DNA from: Candidatus Paceibacter sp. | GTDB taxonomy: Bacteria; Patescibacteriota; Minisyncoccia; Phycocordibacterales; BOKC01 | Assembly: GCA_020724885.1 (NCBI GenBank) | Contig: DYGD01000001.1 | Coordinates: forward strand, 7,018-65,839 | Direction: 5' to 3' | DNA: 58,822 nt | In this document: positions 3,168 through 51,019 of the stretch, in pieces | How the letters are laid out: each line of letters begins with the position of its first letter | Numbering within the stretch: the stretch's first letter is position 1 | The notes under the pieces: model-generated | The model's input: the letters and a program-made list of their open reading frames with translations, nothing else | Databases searched by the model: none | Told to the model about the DNA's origin: nothing | Translations under genes and position numbers: made by a program

Positions 3168-3212
3168 AAAATTATTCGTGTTATTCGCATAAATTCGTGA
3201 ATTGGTGTCGTG

Positions 3213-22117: not shown

Positions 22118-22741
22118 CTACATTGAGACAACTTCAACAACCGTACCGCGCCTGCCGGGGACAGCGCCAGATATCAACAGACGCCCCTCCTCCTTATCAA
22201 GACCGACGACTTTAAGGTTCTTGACAGTTATTTTCTCACCACCCATTCGGCCAGCCATCCTTATTCCCTTGGCAACCCGACCGCCGGCTCGACCACCACC
22301 ACCAATAGAACCCGGTTCTCTTTCAGAATGTTTCTGTCCGTGACTTCTAGGACCACCGGCAAATCCATGCCTCTTAACCACCCCTTGAAAACCTTTTGAC
22401 TTTGAAAGAGCCGAGACCCGGACACTGTCGTTTTCAGAGAATATAGAAAGATCAATCTTATCACCAACCTTAAATGCAGACAATTTTTCGGCCGGTAAAC
22501 GAAACTCTTTAAAATAACGGAAACTACCGATACTCTTAAGATGCCCTTTTTGTGGCTTCTTTACTTTTGAATCCTTTATTCCCTGAAAGGCCACTTGCAA
22601 CGCCGAATATCCGTCAGTTTCTTGATTTTTGACTTGGGCTATCGCTTGTGGATAGACCATCACCAAAGTCGCCGGAATCGCTTTCCCATCTTTATCAAAT
22701 ATTTGAGTCATTCCGACTTTTTTTCCGATGATAAACTTCAT
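22118..22741 (-). CDS. rplC: 50S ribosomal protein L3
   Basis: GKKVGMTQ, KGFQGVVKRHGF and MAGRMG motifs. Confidence 0.98.
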   Translation of the reverse strand: MKFIIGKKVGMTQIFDKDGKAIPATLVMVYPQAIAQVKNQETDGYSALQVAFQGIKDSKVKKPQKGHLKSIGSFRYFKEFRLPAEKLSAFKVGDKIDLSIFSENDSVRVSALSKSKGFQGVVKRHGFAGGPRSHGQKHSEREPGSIGGGGRAGGRVAKGIRMAGRMGGEKITVKNLKVVGLDKEEGRLLISGAVPGRRGTVVEVVSM

Positions 22742-22746
22742 AATAT

Positions 22747-22805
22747 CTCGGCACTAATTTACTAACGCCCGCCTTTGGCGGGTGCGTTCGTGGATTGGTG
22801 TCGGG
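22747..22805. repeat. hairpin element filling the rpsJ-rplC spacer
   Basis: CTCGGCACTAATTTACTAACGC...GCGTTCGTGGATTGGTGTCGGG inverted repeat. Confidence 0.75.
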
Positions 22806-23229: not shown

Positions 23230-24420
23230 TTATGCGATAACCTTGGTCACCACTCCGGCGCCGACAGTTTTACCTCCTTCGCGAATGGCAAATCTCTGTT
23301 GTTCTTCCAGGGCGACCGGAGCAACCAGCTTGACTTTCAATTTAACCGTATCCCCGGGCATTACCATTTCTGTCCCTTCCGGCAAAGTCGCTTCGCCAGT
23401 CACATCAGTTGTTCGCATATAGAATTGTGGTTTGTAGCCAGTGAAAAACGGGGTGTGGCGACCGCCTTCCTCTTTCTTCAAGATATAAACTTCGGTTTCA
23501 AATTCAGTATGAGGGGTTATTGACCCAGTTTTAGCCAAAACTTGACCTCTGTGAACATCCTCTTTTTTAAGCCCGCGAAGCAAGATTCCGGCATTATCGC
23601 CAGCCATACCTTCCGACAGAGATTTGTTGAACATTTCAATACCGGTGACAACTGTTTTTTGGGTGTCTTTCAGACCAACAATTTCTATCTCCTCTCCAAC
23701 CTTCAGCTTACCTCTCTCAATCCTTCCGGTGACAACGGTGCCTCGGCCCTCAATTGAAAAGATATCTTCAACTGGCATCAAAAACGGCTTGTCAATCTCA
23801 CGCTCCGGCATCGGAATATATTCATCCAATGCATTAGCCAAATCAAGAACCTTTTTTGACCATTCATCATCATTATCCTTGGCTTCCAAGGCCTTGAGAG
23901 CGGAACCACGGATAATCGGCGCATTTGCTCCGTCAAATTCGTATTTGTTCAACAGTTCCCGGACTTCTTCTTCAACCAAATCAATCAATTCGGCATCAGG
24001 CACAGCGTCGCACTTATTCAAGAAGACGATGATTTTTGGCACGCCAACCTGCTTTGCCAAGAGAATATGCTCTCTGGTTTGCGGCATAACACCATCAGTC
24101 GCGGCGACAACCAAAACCGCGCCATCCATCTGTGCCGCGCCGGTAATCATGTTTTTAATGTAATCGGCATGTCCCGGAGCATCAATGTGGGCATAATGCC
24201 TTTTGTCGGTCTCGTATTCGTTGTGAGAAAGAGCAATAGTAATGCCTCGGGCCTTTTCTTCCGGCGCCGAGTCAATTTGGTCAACTCCTTTCAACTTAAC
24301 ATTTTTGCCGGCGCGATTTAAGACATTTAGAATCGCGGCGGTTAAAGTGGTCTTGCCGTGATCAACGTGGCCAATGGTGCCGACATTGACGTGTGGCTTG
24401 GAACGATCAAATTCAGTCAT
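23230..24420 (-). CDS. tuf: elongation factor Tu
   Basis: [26 protein letters not shown] and [13 protein letters not shown] motifs. Confidence 0.99.
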
Positions 24421-24562
24421 ATTTTTATTTAAAACTAATTATTAATTATTTGGATGTTGTTTAAAAAAACAACAAAGACCATTACACTTTTGTGTAGACA
24501 CTATCCTAACAGAAAATCTTATGGCGTCAAGCGTTTTCTGTTAACTGCCTGTTGATTAAAAA

Positions 24563-24590
24563 CTGCCCCGTCCGCAAGCGGACGGGGCAG
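24563..24590 (-). terminator. GC-rich hairpin (terminator or DGR-type stem-loop)
   Basis: CTGCCCCGTCCGC-AA-GCGGACGGGGCAG followed by a T-run on the minus strand. Confidence 0.7.
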
Positions 24591-24635
24591 AGAAGGTCAG
24601 GGTGCTTGAATCTGGTACACCCAGATTCCTGGAAA

Positions 24636-25154
24636 CTAAGCGCGGAGGAACAGCCGGCAACCGGCTCTCCAAACACATTCATGTAGGTCAGACTCAGCGC
24701 CCCAGCCCCAGCCATAACCGGAGTACACACCAATCAGTCTGACACACACGACCGCAAGCGCAAGAGGGTCATCTTCAGTCAGAACTAAGAAGAGAACATG
24801 CTTAATGTTGAGGAGGAAGTGGCCAGTCACCCCATCCCACGAATCGTTCAACACATAATTCCACTGATCCACCGCGTGGCGGATCTGACTGGGGGTAAAG
24901 ATGTGTTTCTCGCGAACAACCTCCTCACCTCCGGCTGCTTCCACTATCTCGTCAATCGTCATGTCATGATCCAGAGTGTACCCCTGGAATCTCATTGCCG
25001 GGGTTTCTCCATCACGCATCCGAACGGGAAGAAGATCCCGTTGATGGAAGGGTGAACTGGGATCTACGCTCGCCGTAAGGAAAGCATCAGCCCTCGACGA
25101 GAGAGCCGGAATCTCCAGAACAAAGTCCTTGGCAACGGAGAGTGTCCCTGTCAT
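24636..25154 (-). CDS. orphan protein between fusA and tuf; possible DGR target
   Basis: AGGAG SD; C-terminus VVCV...W...W.AG.RLFLR resembles the variable tails of CPR DGR targets. Confidence 0.65.
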   Translation of the reverse strand: MTGTLSVAKDFVLEIPALSSRADAFLTASVDPSSPFHQRDLLPVRMRDGETPAMRFQGYTLDHDMTIDEIVEAAGGEEVVREKHIFTPSQIRHAVDQWNYVLNDSWDGVTGHFLLNIKHVLFLVLTEDDPLALAVVCVRLIGVYSGYGWGWGAESDLHECVWRAGCRLFLRA

Positions 25155-25391
25155 TTTTTTCTCCTATTCTTTTATTCTTTTTGTTATGCTTCACCTCTCA
25201 CCCTTGACAACGCGCCGCAGGCCACAGGCAAAGCATTTTAGATACAGCCCATAAGGGGCTAAATTTGGCAAAAACCACTTTTGGGCTGTATCCAAGAACT
25301 TCCACGCTTCAAAGAGCAAAACTGCCTCTAGTATACACTAAAGCAGTGTTTTGACAAGTTCGAAAAACCCCCTATTGGCTAGCGGCCAAAA

Positions 25392-27527
25392 TTATTTCCT
25401 CGCCTCAATAATTTCCTGCGCAACATTGGGCGGAACAATGGCGTAATGGTCAAATTCCATCATCGCCGTGCCACGACCTTCGGTCATGGAACGCAAGGAG
25501 GTGACGTAACCAAACATTTCCGAGAGCGGGACTTTGGCGACGATTGATTTCAGTTCGCCTTTATCTTCCATTGATTCAATCACACCCCTTTTTGAATTCA
25601 AACTGCCGGTAATATCACCCATAAACTTTTCCGGCACTACCACTTCAACTTTCATCACCGGTTCAAGCAAAACCGGCTTGGCGCGTTTGGCTGCTTCTTG
25701 AAAGGCCTGCGAAGCGGCGATTTTATAGGCAATTTCTGAAGAGTCAACATCGTGGTAAGAGCCGAAAGTCAGTTCGCAAGAGATGTCGGTCATCTTGTAA
25801 CCGGCAACAACCCCTCTTTCCATCGCCTCTTTGACACCCTTTTCAACTGCCGGAATGAATTCCTGCGGAATGACACCGCCCTTGATAGAATCAATAAATT
25901 CAAAGCCCTCATCTCGTTTAATATTTTTCGGCAGTTTTTCCGGCGCCGGCCCGAGTGGCTTGACATTGATTTTAACATGGCCGTATTGTCCGCGGCCGCC
26001 GGTCTGTTTGATGTATTTATTTTCAACTTCAGCAGTGCCGGTAATGGTTTCCTTATAAGCAACCTGCGGCTTGCCGACATTGGTCAGAACACCAAACTCC
26101 CTTTTCATTCGGTCTACCAAAATTTCAAGATGAAGCTCGCCCATACCCATAATGACCGTCTCACCGGTTTCCGGATCACTCTTGACTCTGAAAGTCGGGT
26201 CTTCATCAGACAACCTCTTTAATGCAATGCCCATCTTCTCCTGATCAGCTTTGGTCTTTGGCTCAACTCGAAGCGAAATAACCGGCTCCGGAAATTCTAT
26301 TTTTTCTAAAATAATCGGCTCGCTTTCATCACAAAGTGTGTCGCCGGTCTTGGCATTTTTCAAGCCAACTGCCGCTGCGATTTCTCCGGCATAGACGGTT
26401 TTAACTTCCTCTCTTTCATTGGCGTGCATTCGCAAAATCCGACCGAGCCGTTCGCGTTCGCCGGTAGTGGCATTATAAACATAAGAGCCGGCAGAAATTA
26501 TGCCCGAATAGACCCGAAAATAGGTTAATTGGCCAACATAGGGGTCGGTCTGTAATTTAAAAGCCAAAGCGGCAAAGGGTTCCTCATCGCTTGAATGTCT
26601 TTCAATCGATTCTTCGGTCTTGGGATCAATGCCTTTGATCGGTGGGACATCTGTCGGAGACGGCAAGTAGTCAACGACCGCATCCAAAACCAACTGTACC
26701 CCTTTATTCTTCAAAGCCGAACCAGTGAAAACCGGTACAATTTTATTTTCAATAACCGCCTTGCGCAAAATCCTTTTAAGATCAGCGAATGGAATCTCTT
26801 GGCCTTCAAGGTATCTACCCATCATCTCTTCATCGTTTTCAACAATTTTTTCAACCAGTTCGGAGTGGTATTTCCGGGCAAGCTCTTTATGGCTGTCAGG
26901 AATTTCAGCTTCGCGGACAGAATTGCCCATTTCTCCATCAAAGTAATAGGTCTTCATCTTGAGAACATCAATAATCGCCTCAAAGGCGCTTTCTTCGCCA
27001 ATCGGGATCTGCATTCTAACGGCGTTTTTAGTCAAACGTTTCAAAATTGATTGAAATGATTTTTCAAAACTGCCACCCATCCGGTCCAATTTGTTAATAA
27101 AACAAATTCTTGGAACTCTATACTTGTCGGCTTGTCGCCAGACGGTCTCGGATTGTGGCTCTACTCCAGCAACTCCGTCAAACACAACAACTCCACCGTC
27201 TAAGACCTTGAGCGACCGCTCTACTTCCACAGTAAAATCCACGTGTCCCGGGGTATCAATAATATTGAAACGGTGTTTCTTGCTCTGGTCTGTTTTATCT
27301 TCATAAGTCGGAACCCAAAAGCAGGTGGTCGCCGCCGAAGTGATGGTAATACCCCTTTCTTTTTCCTGCTCCATCCAATCCATAATGGCCTGACCTTCGT
27401 GAACCTCTCCGATTTTATGGGAAACTCCGGTATAAAAAAGCACCCTCTCGGAAGTAGTGGTCTTGCCAGCGTCTATGTGGGCGATAATGCCGAAATTTCT
27501 TACTTTTTCTAGTGGATAATCTCGCAT
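25392..27527 (-). CDS. fusA: elongation factor G
   Basis: [31 protein letters not shown] and [10 protein letters not shown] motifs. Confidence 0.99.
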
Positions 27528-27530
27528 AAA

Positions 27531-27985
27531 AACTAATTACAAATCTAATATAAATATACAAATTTCAACCTCTGATATTTAAAATTCTCTTGAATTTCAC
27601 CTCATCCGTCCCAAACTGTGCAATTATTCCTAGTTTTAGATTCTTGGCTTTTAAGTAACTTAGAATTTGGTCTATATTTCTTTTGCTAACTCTATTTCCT
27701 TTTTTTAATTCAAGAACAATTTTATCTTCTATCAATAAATCTAAATAATACTTTCCTATAACCTTATTCCTAAACTTCACTGGAAAGTAGACCTGTCTGT
27801 TATGTTTTATTCCATTTTCCGTTAATAAGCTTGAAACGGCTTCTTCATAAACTTTCTCCTTGTGTCCAGGACCAATCGTGTTATAAACTTCAAACAGAAA
27901 CCCAACTATTTTATAGCTCAATTCTGGATAGACCAGTTCTGAATCTTTCTTCATTTGTATATATGTATCGGATTTGTAATTGGCT
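27531..27985. mobile_element. inverted-repeat-bracketed GxxExxY cassette (putative)
   Basis: 33 bp arms at 27531-27563 and 27953-27985, 27/33 complementary, enclosing exactly one ORF; mobility is inferred. Confidence 0.55.
27565..27954 (-). CDS. GxxExxY protein (PD-(D/E)xK nuclease-like)
   Basis: GPGHKEKVY, DLLIEDKIVLELK and Q.LSYLK....LG motifs. Confidence 0.93.
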   Translation of the reverse strand: MKKDSELVYPELSYKIVGFLFEVYNTIGPGHKEKVYEEAVSSLLTENGIKHNRQVYFPVKFRNKVIGKYYLDLLIEDKIVLELKKGNRVSKRNIDQILSYLKAKNLKLGIIAQFGTDEVKFKRILNIRG

Positions 27986-27990
27986 CTTCA

Positions 27991-28461
27991 TTACCATGCG
28001 AAGTGAGCAAAGGCCTTATTGGCCTCCGCCATCTTATGGGTATTTTCCCTCTTTTTTACCGCCTCGCCTTCGTTTTTGCTTGCAGAAATTATTTCATCGG
28101 ACAATCTTTCTTTCATTGGCTTACCTTTTTTATTTCTGGCTGCCTCTACAATCCATTTCATGGAAAGCGCTTGACGTCTCTCGGCCCTGACTTCTCTAGG
28201 AATTTGATAATTGGCGCCACCGATCCGACGAGACCTGACTTCCATTGAGGGCGCGGTATTTTTCAGCGCGGTCTCAAATATTTCCAAAGGATCTTCTGTT
28301 TTGGTTTTTTGGGAAAGTAAAACAAGGGTGTCGTAAACAACCTTTCTGGCAACCTCTTTCTTGCCGTCTTCCATCACATAGTTAATAAACTTCTCAACTT
28401 TCGGCGAGTCATACTTGAAATCCGGCTTTAATTTTCTTTTGTTTTTTATTTTTCTACGCAT
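27991..28461 (-). CDS. rpsG: 30S ribosomal protein S7
   Basis: [15 protein letters not shown] and [12 protein letters not shown] motifs. Confidence 0.98.
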
Positions 28462-28574: not shown

Positions 28575-28988
28575 TTAAGAGGCCTTCGGCCTCTTCGCCC
28601 CATACAAACTTCGTCCGCGTTTCCTACCCTCAACTCCGGTTGCATCCAAAACACCACGAACGATAGTATATCTTAACCCGACATCTTTTACCCTACCACC
28701 TCTCAAAACAACAACAGAATGTTCCTGGAGGGCGTGTCCGATTCCTGGAATATAAGCCGTCACCTCCATACCGTTGGTCAAACGAACCCTGGCTATTTTT
28801 CTAATAGCAGAATTTGGTTTTTTCGGGGTCTTGGTTGTCACCTTCACGCAAACCCCTCTTTTGAAGGGCGAAGGATAGTAGGCCGGCTTATTCTTAAGAA
28901 CATTAAATCCCTTGGCTAAAGCAACGGCTTTTGATTTTTTGACAATCTTTTTTCTTTTTCTCTTTACTAGCTGATTTATCGTTGGCAT
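28575..28988 (-). CDS. rpsL: 30S ribosomal protein S12
   Basis: [22 protein letters not shown] and YIPGIGH.LQEHS motifs. Confidence 0.98.
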
Positions 28989-29693: not shown

Positions 29694-29780
29694 TGTTGTT
29701 AAAAAGTAAAAAAGTAAAGAGTAAAAAGTAAATTTTTATAATATCGCTTGGACTTTTAATGAGAGTATGATAACATTACC

Positions 29781-29860
29781 CGACACAAATTACGAATAAA
29801 AACGAATGACACCAATATTATCTTATTCGTGTAATTCGCTCAATTCGTGGATTAGTGTCG
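29781..29860. repeat. long imperfect hairpin of ACGAAT units upstream of rpmB
   Basis: CGACACAAATTACGAAT...ATTCGTGGATTAGTGTCG. Confidence 0.75.
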
Positions 29861-29867
29861 AGTTTGT

Positions 29868-30107
29868 ATGAAAATCTGTCCAATCACAAAAAAGAAAACA
29901 ATTGTCGGTGGCGGTTATTCCAATCGCACCCGCGCCACCAAATTCAATCCGACCGGCAAATCGCCCAAACGACCGAACATCCAGCGGAAAAGAATTTATA
30001 TTCCGGAATTAAAAAAGACGGTTTCTTTGAATATCTCAACCAAAGGCCTCAAGACCATTCGCAAAAGAGGCGCTTACCAAACTCTCAAAAAAGCGGGAAT
30101 AATCTAG
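29868..30107 (+). CDS. rpmB: 50S ribosomal protein L28
   Basis: MKICPIT.K, PNIQ.K and ISTKGLKTI motifs. Confidence 0.9.
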   Translation: MKICPITKKKTIVGGGYSNRTRATKFNPTGKSPKRPNIQRKRIYIPELKKTVSLNISTKGLKTIRKRGAYQTLKKAGII

Positions 30108-36801: not shown

Positions 36802-36843
36802 TCAACGGAGACAACTTGGCGATCGCCAAGTTGTCTCCGTTGA
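36802..36843. repeat. perfect 42 bp palindrome
   Basis: TCAACGGAGACAACTTGGCGA|TCGCCAAGTTGTCTCCGTTGA. Confidence 0.95.
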
Positions 36844-36942
36844 CATCTGAAACGAGAAAATGATAGTGTCAGCGGAACAAAATCAGCGGTGCTCGTAGCA
36901 CCGCTAACAGACGGGGAAGAAACAGGGGTAAGGAGACATAAT

Positions 36943-50975: not shown

Positions 50976-51019
50976 AATTATCTCGACACAAATTCGTGGA
51001 TTGGTGCCAGGTTATTTTT

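Follow-up and report, generated by a model that had tools for sequence, protein, structure and literature searches.

Free-standing homing endonuclease genes are promoter-less nuclease genes wedged between conserved genes, and Rickettsia palindromic elements are palindromic selfish DNA that survives inside essential genes by in-frame translation. We know of no homing endonuclease gene that needs inverted repeat arrays or leaves gene-less repeat copies, and to our knowledge the Rickettsia elements carry no gene. Here we describe a locus that resembles both. In a 58,822-nucleotide (nt) stretch of Candidatus Paceibacter sp. contig DYGD01000001.1, the whole of which is called the window below, the gap between rpsG and fusA of the str operon is filled by a 129-amino-acid (aa) gene of the GxxExxY family and two inverted repeat arms, together called the cassette. 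Like homing endonuclease genes, the cassette is found at the same junctions in distant lineages and is present or absent between close relatives; like Rickettsia palindromic elements and intragenic MITEs (miniature transposable elements with inverted repeats), its relatives lie in frame in RecG and a GTPase. In contrast to the Rickettsia elements, it encodes its own nuclease, and the window copy is intergenic with its own start and stop. Apparently not described before, the GxxExxY cassette seems to be a widespread type of selfish DNA that occupies gene junctions in ultra-small bacteria. On balance, we think it probable that it is a promoter-less selfish element whose PD-(D/E)XK enzyme acts on its own repeat arrays, with a logic like that of repetitive extragenic palindromes (REPs) and REP-associated tyrosine transposases (RAYTs).

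In the available text of two reports on REPs, REP doublets (REPINs) and RAYTs (PMC3337134, PMC3116915), a single-copy enzyme gene is flanked by inverted short repeats, gene-less copies of the repeats are more numerous and stand in spacers singly or as inverted doublets, and repeats and enzyme gene co-occur across genomes. The cassette resembles them in its single-copy enzyme gene between inverted arms and in the co-occurrence of arrays and gene across genomes; the window genome (G000) has 12 gene-less heads of an array related to the arms, although the arm sequence itself has no second copy there. It differs in its enzyme, which is a PD-(D/E)XK nuclease (PF13366) where RAYTs are HUH Y1 transposases, and in its arms, which are phased arrays of 6-7-nt units with one free position where REPs are single hairpins. 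Unlike REP/RAYT, cassette copies also lie in frame inside protein genes.

The intervening sequences (IVSs) of 23S rRNA, as far as the available portions of two papers describe them (PMC4990558, PMC11270868), likewise place a small open reading frame (ORF) in a long stem within a highly expressed conserved unit, are patchy in distribution and are deemed selfish. They sit in an rRNA helix and their ORF is S23p (23S_rRNA_IVP, PF05635), whereas the cassette lies in an mRNA spacer between protein genes of the str operon and its ORF is PF13366; Rfam gave no match in the window. Excision by RNase III is reported there for IVSs and, by analogy, may be considered for the cassette. Protein-embedded, translated-through copies have no IVS counterpart. 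The rRNA homing endonucleases of the candidate phyla radiation (CPR) are, in the part of one of these papers that was available (PMC11270868), LAGLIDADG or GIY-YIG enzymes, and GxxExxY was not among the homing endonuclease families described in the literature searched. GxxExxY/PDDEXK_3 is a large family listed as 'function unknown' in the portion of a family survey available to us (PMC3424549). A literature search, with subscription journals and supplements outside its scope, returned no description of GxxExxY genes with flanking arrays, gene-less derivatives or in-frame copies.

The rpsG-fusA cassette and its empty counterpart

The str operon lies on the minus strand of the window in the order rpsL, rpsG, GxxExxY ORF, fusA, tuf. 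The genome assembly (591 kb, 18 contigs) is 92.8% complete. The features of the locus are as follows.

27953-27988, minus strand: 5' arm, AAGAGCCAATTACAAATCCGATACATATATACAAAT in mRNA sense, a degenerate xCNAAT array (top inverted pair in the repeat search)
27565-27954, minus strand: GxxExxY / PDDEXK_3 gene, 129 aa, intact, with its own ATG and TGA (PF13366, TIGR04256)
27528-27563, minus strand: 3' arm, ATTTGTATATTTATATTAGATTTGTAATTAGTTTTT in mRNA sense (top inverted pair in the repeat search)
27991-28461, minus strand: rpsG (ribosomal protein S7), upstream neighbour (PF00177, 7.1e-58; 88% identity to the homologue of G001, a genome of the same genus)
25392-27527, minus strand: fusA (EF-G), downstream neighbour (Pfam EF-G domains)
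28575-28988, minus strand: rpsL
23230-24420, minus strand: tuf

The rpsG-fusA gap is an arm-gene-arm unit. The arms, of 36 nt each, are 81% complementary, stand 389 nt apart and form the highest-ranked inverted pair of the repeat search. On the mRNA strand, the 5' arm begins 2 nt past the stop codon of rpsG and runs into the GxxExxY ATG, whose first two bases it includes; its unit is of the same type as those in the arms of relatives. The 3' arm begins 1 nt past the GxxExxY stop, and the last base of its 36-nt version directly precedes the fusA ATG. The original prediction had described this gap as arm-gene-arm, with 33-bp arms complementary at 27 of 33 positions, one overlapping the GxxExxY ATG and the other 1 nt past the stop; the ORF list and the top inverted pair agree with it, the 33-bp arms being the inner part of the 36-nt pair. 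A 29-nt IUPAC consensus of the arms matched twice in the window, at the two arms, and not at all in 100 shuffles. Local alignment of the cassette flanks scored 49, whereas 20 shuffles averaged 20.75 and reached 26 at most. The GxxExxY ORF had no Shine-Dalgarno (SD)-like motif upstream. Such a motif was present within 20 nt upstream in only 9 of the 61 long ORFs of the window, and the organism therefore seems to initiate translation mostly without SD pairing.

The 129-aa protein is an intact, minimal predicted nuclease of the PD-(D/E)XK type. Its sole Pfam match, PF13366 (3.3e-30, 105.3 bits against a cut-off of 22), spans profile positions 2-116 of 117, and the TIGR04256 GxxExxY match (1.2e-31, 109.4 bits, cut-off 35) spans positions 1-115 of 116. 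The translation contains the motif G-H-K-E-K-V-Y, and it retains both the GxxExxY motif and the PD-(D/E)XK catalytic residues; E33, Y36, D72, K84, Q96 and Y100 are invariant among 48 aligned free-standing sequences, the window's included. An AlphaFold2 model with a predicted local distance difference test (pLDDT) score of 92.7 has the restriction-endonuclease-like alpha/beta fold, and its best structural neighbours are all PD-(D/E)XK nucleases. One of them was Cas4 SSO0001 (4ic1; E 1.2e-4, template modelling (TM) score 0.56). The nuclease domain of BpuSI also matched (Z 8.0, root-mean-square deviation 2.5, 92 aligned), as did, at Z 6.6-7.9, a Spirosoma restriction-endonuclease-like protein (3ijm, Z 7.9), HsdR, BglII and Hjc (Z 6.6). 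Weak PDB sequence-profile hits to T7 endonuclease I (E 0.09-0.13) were set aside, as fold searches did not support them.

The genus offers an empty form of the same junction. G001, which is in one contig and 100% complete, has no PF13366 gene, and its rpsG-fusA gap of about 65 nt has no similarity to the arms. In the alignment of the two genomes, homology ends 2 nt past the rpsG stop and resumes at the fusA start, a 63-nt spacer having been replaced; the cassette has therefore taken the place of the whole native spacer. The window's fusA begins MRDYPLEK, one codon shorter than the MNRDYPLEK of the three relatives read; its ATG thus stands at their codon 2, and the right junction of the replacement touches the fusA start. 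None of the 128 other loci that we inspected, from the order and from metagenomes, is at the rpsG-fusA position. Comparison of filled and empty junctions had been proposed at the outset, and its result, an empty G001 gap with no other inspected locus at this site, speaks against vertical inheritance of the cassette here. The locus thus adds a clean filled/empty pair within one genus and a spacer-replacement junction that touches fusA.

The rpsG-fusA gap stands out as a hot spot within the family, two other genomes having gaps of their own kind: in G002 (L018 1204-1240) the gap is 294 nt long and has four TAAATC units adjoining the fusA ATG, and in G005 (L019 295-1497) it is about 1.2 kb long and holds a 125-aa membrane-like ORF and a 107-aa ORF.

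The cassette recurs as a unit at many co-directional gene junctions and in frame inside genes

PF13366 was found in 54 of the 401 genomes surveyed in the order, with 72 matches, and 48 free-standing loci were fetched. A metagenome set comprised 80 loci kept of 116 hits, 36-61% identical to the window nuclease. The flank score, which measures inverted similarity between the two sides of a gene, had a median of 30.5 in 46 free-standing order loci and of 14 in 43 control ORFs of the same loci, and 26 of the 46 lay above the controls' 95th percentile. When windows were anchored on the domain, a flank score of at least 30 together with xACNAAT arrays was seen in 32 of the 48 order loci. In the metagenome set, 61 of the 74 loci with enough flank had a score of at least 30. 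The arm unit in the order loci is 6-7 nt long and recurs every 8-10 nt (TACGAAT, TACAAAT, ACTAAT, GCGAAT); ACGAAA or CACGGAT takes its place in some lineages. These data show flanking inverted repeats to be enriched across the GxxExxY family, as had been anticipated, and their recurrence throughout the family supports the earlier suggestion that the arm-gene-arm unit is a discrete cassette.

The same data bear on the alternative that an ordinary accessory gene happens to lie between a chance or terminator-like inverted pair. The window is A+T-rich, short A/T-rich inverted matches are common in it, and eleven further weak pairs occur in the same 700 nt. The arm pair is nonetheless far above shuffles, its architecture recurs in the 32 order and 61 metagenome loci while control ORFs score low, and a terminator's G+C-rich stem and T-run are missing from the arms. 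The comparison with relatives and control ORFs already contradicts this explanation, and we regard it as very improbable.

The cassettes keep a strict layout. Both neighbours are co-oriented with the cassette in 39 of 46 order loci and in 45 of 60 distinct metagenome cassettes, the other 15 being made up of 8 without a called neighbour and 7 with one neighbour opposite. In the metagenome set, an arm lies within 15 nt of the upstream stop in 28/41 loci and within 15 nt of the downstream start in 32/45; among the order loci with good arms, both gaps are at most 10 nt in 20 of 31 (hand count). At the same junctions, where empty in G000, spacers are mostly about 27-132 nt by rough estimate, suggesting that the abutment of arms and codons is not due to short native spacers. 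Sense orientation and arms abutting the neighbours' stop and start codons fit the notion, put forward in the original prediction, that the element keeps the operon intact. Such a layout is a natural test of how insertions are tolerated in the essential operons of tiny genomes. Some copies have decayed: in 5 metagenome loci the open frame measures 64-98 aa.

The closest nucleases, 49-61% identical to that of the window, lie at 15 or more other junctions, among them MetRS-TatD, gmd-epimerase, T2SSE-T2SSF, LeuRS-CofD, rpsL-rpsG, transketolase-GlpX, GtrA-DnaX, LemA-M48 and SecA-x. One relative among these, L096 (49% identical), occupies the rpsL-rpsG junction; a stretch of 11 nt is common to its arms and those of the window cassette. 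Several junctions are used repeatedly: PrgI-215 aa in 8 loci by both neighbours, with a ninth (L059) by the downstream gene only, Wzm-Wzt in 4, NusG-L11 in 3, and MetRS-TatD, AI-2E-MetRS and DnaB-RecR in 2 each. Two genomes of genus g48 can be compared at two of these junctions. At MetRS-TatD, G048 has a cassette and G226 a hairpin that bears the same TACGAAT arms but no gene; at AI-2E-MetRS, G226 has a cassette and G048 only a solo 3' arm.

Of the 72 order matches, 20 are within open frames that measure 521-907 aa, and a further one is within a frame of 327 aa. Of these 21, six were inspected: four are in RecG, one is in a GTPase and one is fused to a pilin-like gene. The RecG copies are nested between the DEAD and Helicase_C domains, and the GTPase copy is inside the G domain (LepA-like). 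The in-gene copies are in frame and stop-free across both junctions. An apparent frame break in the RecG of G300 was discounted, the sequence there being an assembly gap written as N. No gene split by an out-of-frame cassette was evident among the annotated neighbours (71 and 43). In-frame copies together with the lack of split gene pairs suggest that hosts cope with the element by reading through it in translation, and not by excision and re-joining of the ends.

Several individual loci deserve a brief description. In L029 (1880-2045, G226) the 3' end of a cassette, consisting of a 20-nt sub-terminal segment and an ATTCGT array, is tandemly duplicated about 100 nt apart, and the same sub-terminal segment stands inverted beside the 5' arm of a gene-less hairpin in L063. 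In L047 (1413-3061, G246) a 216-aa gene of a PrgI (type IV secretion) cluster has a GxxExxY cassette on each side, and the next gene downstream has a sub-threshold match to an intein splicing domain (PF14890, 34 bits; cut-off 35.8). A metagenome LeuRS beside a related cassette (L081 1-2364) contains a nested NUDIX domain (PF00293, 7e-12).

Gene-less arrays and their link to the nuclease

Gene-less arrays of the same unit are dispersed in nuclease-carrying genomes. The window has four of them.

3174-3212, minus strand: gene-less solo array (CACGACACCAAT TCACGAAT .. GCGAAT .. CACGAAT), from sequence; head match G000:C7:10210-10226
22751-22805, minus strand: gene-less mini hairpin, from sequence; head match G000:C7:29803-29819
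29779-29862, no strand assigned: gene-less hairpin, formed by two inverted arrays of four units around an 8-nt loop (C7:36802-36833 and 36842-36873)
50983-51010, minus strand: gene-less short array head (GGCACCAATCCACGAAT, then an inverted unit), from sequence; head match G000:C7:58009-58025

These arrays belong to a dispersed family with the head GACACYAAT-CCACGAAT, and they fill or end gaps up to start or stop codons. The first occupies all of the spacer that separates a 711-aa gene from a small gene upstream. The second has a GACACCAAT-CCACGAA head and an inverted TTAGTAAATTAGTGCC tail around a G+C-rich stem, and fills the gap before the gene starting at 22741. The third ends 5 nt before the ATG at 29868, where G001 has unrelated sequence, and the fourth lies directly before a gene start. 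In the whole of G000, a relaxed scan found nine arrays of at least 4 units, compared with 0-1 in shuffles; a strict scan for [AT]ACNAAT found no array with 3 or more units. The array head GACACYAATYCRCGAAT matched 12 times in G000, compared with 0 for the control, 0 times in G001 and 3 times in G002. Three of the heads in G000 are in inverted doublets, and four are in the window.

Across the order, a three-unit CGAAT pattern was present in 41 of 54 PF13366-positive genomes and in 45 of 347 negative ones, and at least 5 matches to it were present in 28 of 54 and 14 of 347, respectively (both hand counts, with kinship not corrected). Counts reach 56 per genome, far above two arms per cassette. 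The 13 positive genomes without the pattern mostly carry the G+C-rich RecG type, which has other units. This genome-level association of gene-less arrays with the nuclease gene supports, on sequence grounds, the proposed link between nuclease and arms. To it the present locus adds a contrast within one genus, where one genome has nuclease gene and arrays and the other has neither.

At two junctions where G000 has ACNAAT elements, G001 has unrelated sequence (L146 1340-1460, L147 1425-1500) that shares the word GAAGTCTAG and has inverted CTAGAC/GTCTAG or GAACAG units, so G001 may harbour another small repeat family in these positions while lacking any PF13366 gene. A separate repeat-flanked gene is found in G000, in the region G000:C8:56900-58000, where palindromes GACATCGTAAGTC / GACTTACGATGTC flank a Y1 gene; 3' of this gene is an array of about 6 ACGGAAC-type units, a unit that makes up the cassette arms in another genome (L026).

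Readings of the arms and the cassette

The arms could serve as an RNA stem or as an array of recognition motifs. RNA folding of 27515-28000 closed the stem in both the minimum-energy and the centroid structures, with an energy of -99.5 kcal/mol compared with -83.3 +/- 4.5 for shuffled sequences (z -3.6; 0/100 shuffles as stable). We compared the two arms in 26 cassettes (98 units, 525 spacer columns). Mismatches between arms were found at 45 of 98 N positions of AC-N-AAT, at 0-8 of 98 for the C and AAT positions, and at 120 of 525 spacer columns. G-U-compatible mismatches numbered 31 in the sense and 28 in the antisense direction, that is, there was no wobble bias. Mismatches concentrated at one free position and the lack of wobble bias suggest that the arms resemble arrays of a recognition motif more than a selected RNA stem. 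The symmetry of the arms is also maintained. With fixed windows and proteins thinned to below 70% identity, 35 of 91 cassettes had their own 3' flank as the best match for their 5' flank; for the window cassette the self score was 38 and the best non-self score 35. Sequence comparison thus indicates that the repeated motif and the symmetry are both maintained, and that the arms of one cassette co-evolve.

The proposal of the original prediction, an intervening element at the mRNA level, would have the arms pair in the transcript, where the stem is either cut, by RNase III or by the element's own nuclease, or bridges the rpsG stop and the fusA start and so couples them. The stable predicted stem is in its favor, as are the sense orientation of the cassettes, the match of arms within one cassette in spacers beyond the shared motif, and arms that reach right up to stop and start codons, both in this cassette and in most relatives, though empty junctions hold tens of nucleotides. 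Moreover, ORF-bearing rRNA IVSs are cut by RNase III without ligation in the available text of the papers cited above (PMC4990558, PMC11270868), RNase III is encoded in 4/4 relatives examined, and the PD-(D/E)XK fold includes tRNA-splicing endonucleases (Z 5.2-5.4). RNase III was not found in the G000 assembly; we do not take this as a loss, since the assembly is incomplete and the gene is in 4/4 relatives. Against an RNA-level role, the in-gene copies are translated in frame and no split genes were seen, so re-joining is not what keeps the hosts alive, and the RtcB ligase was not found in 6/6 genomes examined, namely G000, G001 and four carriers of in-frame copies (completeness 84-100%). At close to half of the N positions the two arms do not match, and there is no sense-strand wobble excess. 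The one metatranscriptome compared with the locus covered nothing but conserved stretches of fusA and rpsG, and these came from other organisms. In addition, as SD sites are rare, a 36-bp stem over two start codons is more likely to hinder initiation than to help it. Read-through of the in-gene copies, the lack of RtcB and the motif-like mismatches argue against the proposal as far as sequence can tell, and we judge it improbable; cleavage without ligation at the intergenic stem, as in rRNA IVSs, may still occur.

A host-serving role is another explanation, in which the arrays would be operon punctuation (mRNA stabilisers or DNA-organising sites) and the nuclease a maintenance enzyme that is kept vertically. 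There is one PF13366 gene in G000 and there are 1-4 in relatives, the same junctions are filled in several families (PrgI-215 aa 8, Wzm-Wzt 4, NusG-L11 3), and the window ORF is intact with all family-invariant residues retained despite old, degenerate arms, all of which would suit domestication; RAYTs, too, are typically single-copy and may be domesticated, according to the available part of one report (PMC5581495). The distribution does not fit so well, being patchy (54 of 401 order genomes) with presence and absence within one genus, and the sister genome G001 lacks both gene and arrays. Decayed copies and solo arms also count against it, and insertion into essential proteins looks parasitic. 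We therefore hold domestication to be unlikely.

The selfish-cassette reading that we favor would work as follows. The cassette would have entered the rpsG-fusA junction after the split from the G001 lineage and would be transcribed by read-through of the str operon. Its nuclease would recognise AC-N-AAT arrays, either in duplex form or extruded as a hairpin or cruciform, and would cut DNA; such cuts would promote the insertion of copies, both of the cassette and of gene-less arrays, at new junctions. In its logic the system would be like REP/RAYT or a homing endonuclease gene, with a different enzyme. If true, an overlooked class of mobile or repeat-maintaining DNA would be at hand, many odd 'domain insertions' in essential proteins of CPR/Patescibacteria would be explained, and a sixth enzyme type would join those known to drive prokaryotic repeat elements. 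A bolder version, which we consider doubtful, makes GxxExxY nucleases the only enzyme behind a novel class of mobile DNA. They would recognise phased AC-N-AAT arrays and copy hairpin-ended cassettes, with their gene-less derivatives, both to operon junctions and into coding sequences, the entire spacer being replaced; the arms would also pair in the mRNA, joining stop and start and so hiding the insertion from an operon that relies on translational coupling.

A number of observations weigh against the selfish-cassette reading. None of the 80 metagenome loci retained from 116 hits held a near-identical cassette, identity reaching 61% at most, and other copies of the arms in the G000 genome were only chance matches of at most 15 nt. 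The window cassette arms, mostly ACAAAT and degenerate, differ from the dispersed GACACCAAT-CCACGAAT arrays of G000, which is also a departure from the REP/RAYT case. Degenerate arms and the lack of a close relative suggest that the window copy is old and may no longer move. Arrays also occur without a PF13366 gene, in 45 of 347 genomes and with 3 heads in G002, relatedness being uncorrected, and G000 has a single Y1_Tnp gene (G000:C8:57067-57759, 230 aa) with its own, different palindromic flanks. For a MITE or a terminal-inverted-repeat transposon a target-site duplication is expected; alignment with the empty G001 site showed none at the cassette ends, and no clean insertion boundary was found. 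Two gene-less elements compared with G001 likewise replace local sequence without a duplicated flank. Replacement of a spacer without target-site duplication is at odds with simple cut-and-paste. Among the DNA contigs from three runs that probably represent the source samples, only the filled form was present, and none joined the two sides across the cassette in a way attributable to this organism. Finally, the fold matches of the nuclease are generic (best Z 8.0, TM 0.56) and too distant to name its substrate.

The str operon of the window has a further peculiarity downstream of fusA. The fusA-tuf gap (24421-25391) is 971 nt long, compared with about 205 nt in G001, and includes a G+C-rich stretch of 53-59%, compared with 22% at the gap edge. 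A 172-aa ORF on the sense strand (24636-25154) has no Pfam or NCBIfam match, and its nearest atlas clusters are hypothetical proteins of Minisyncoccota. This is the second lineage-specific insertion in the str operon of this species, and neither of the two belongs to the conserved translation machinery.

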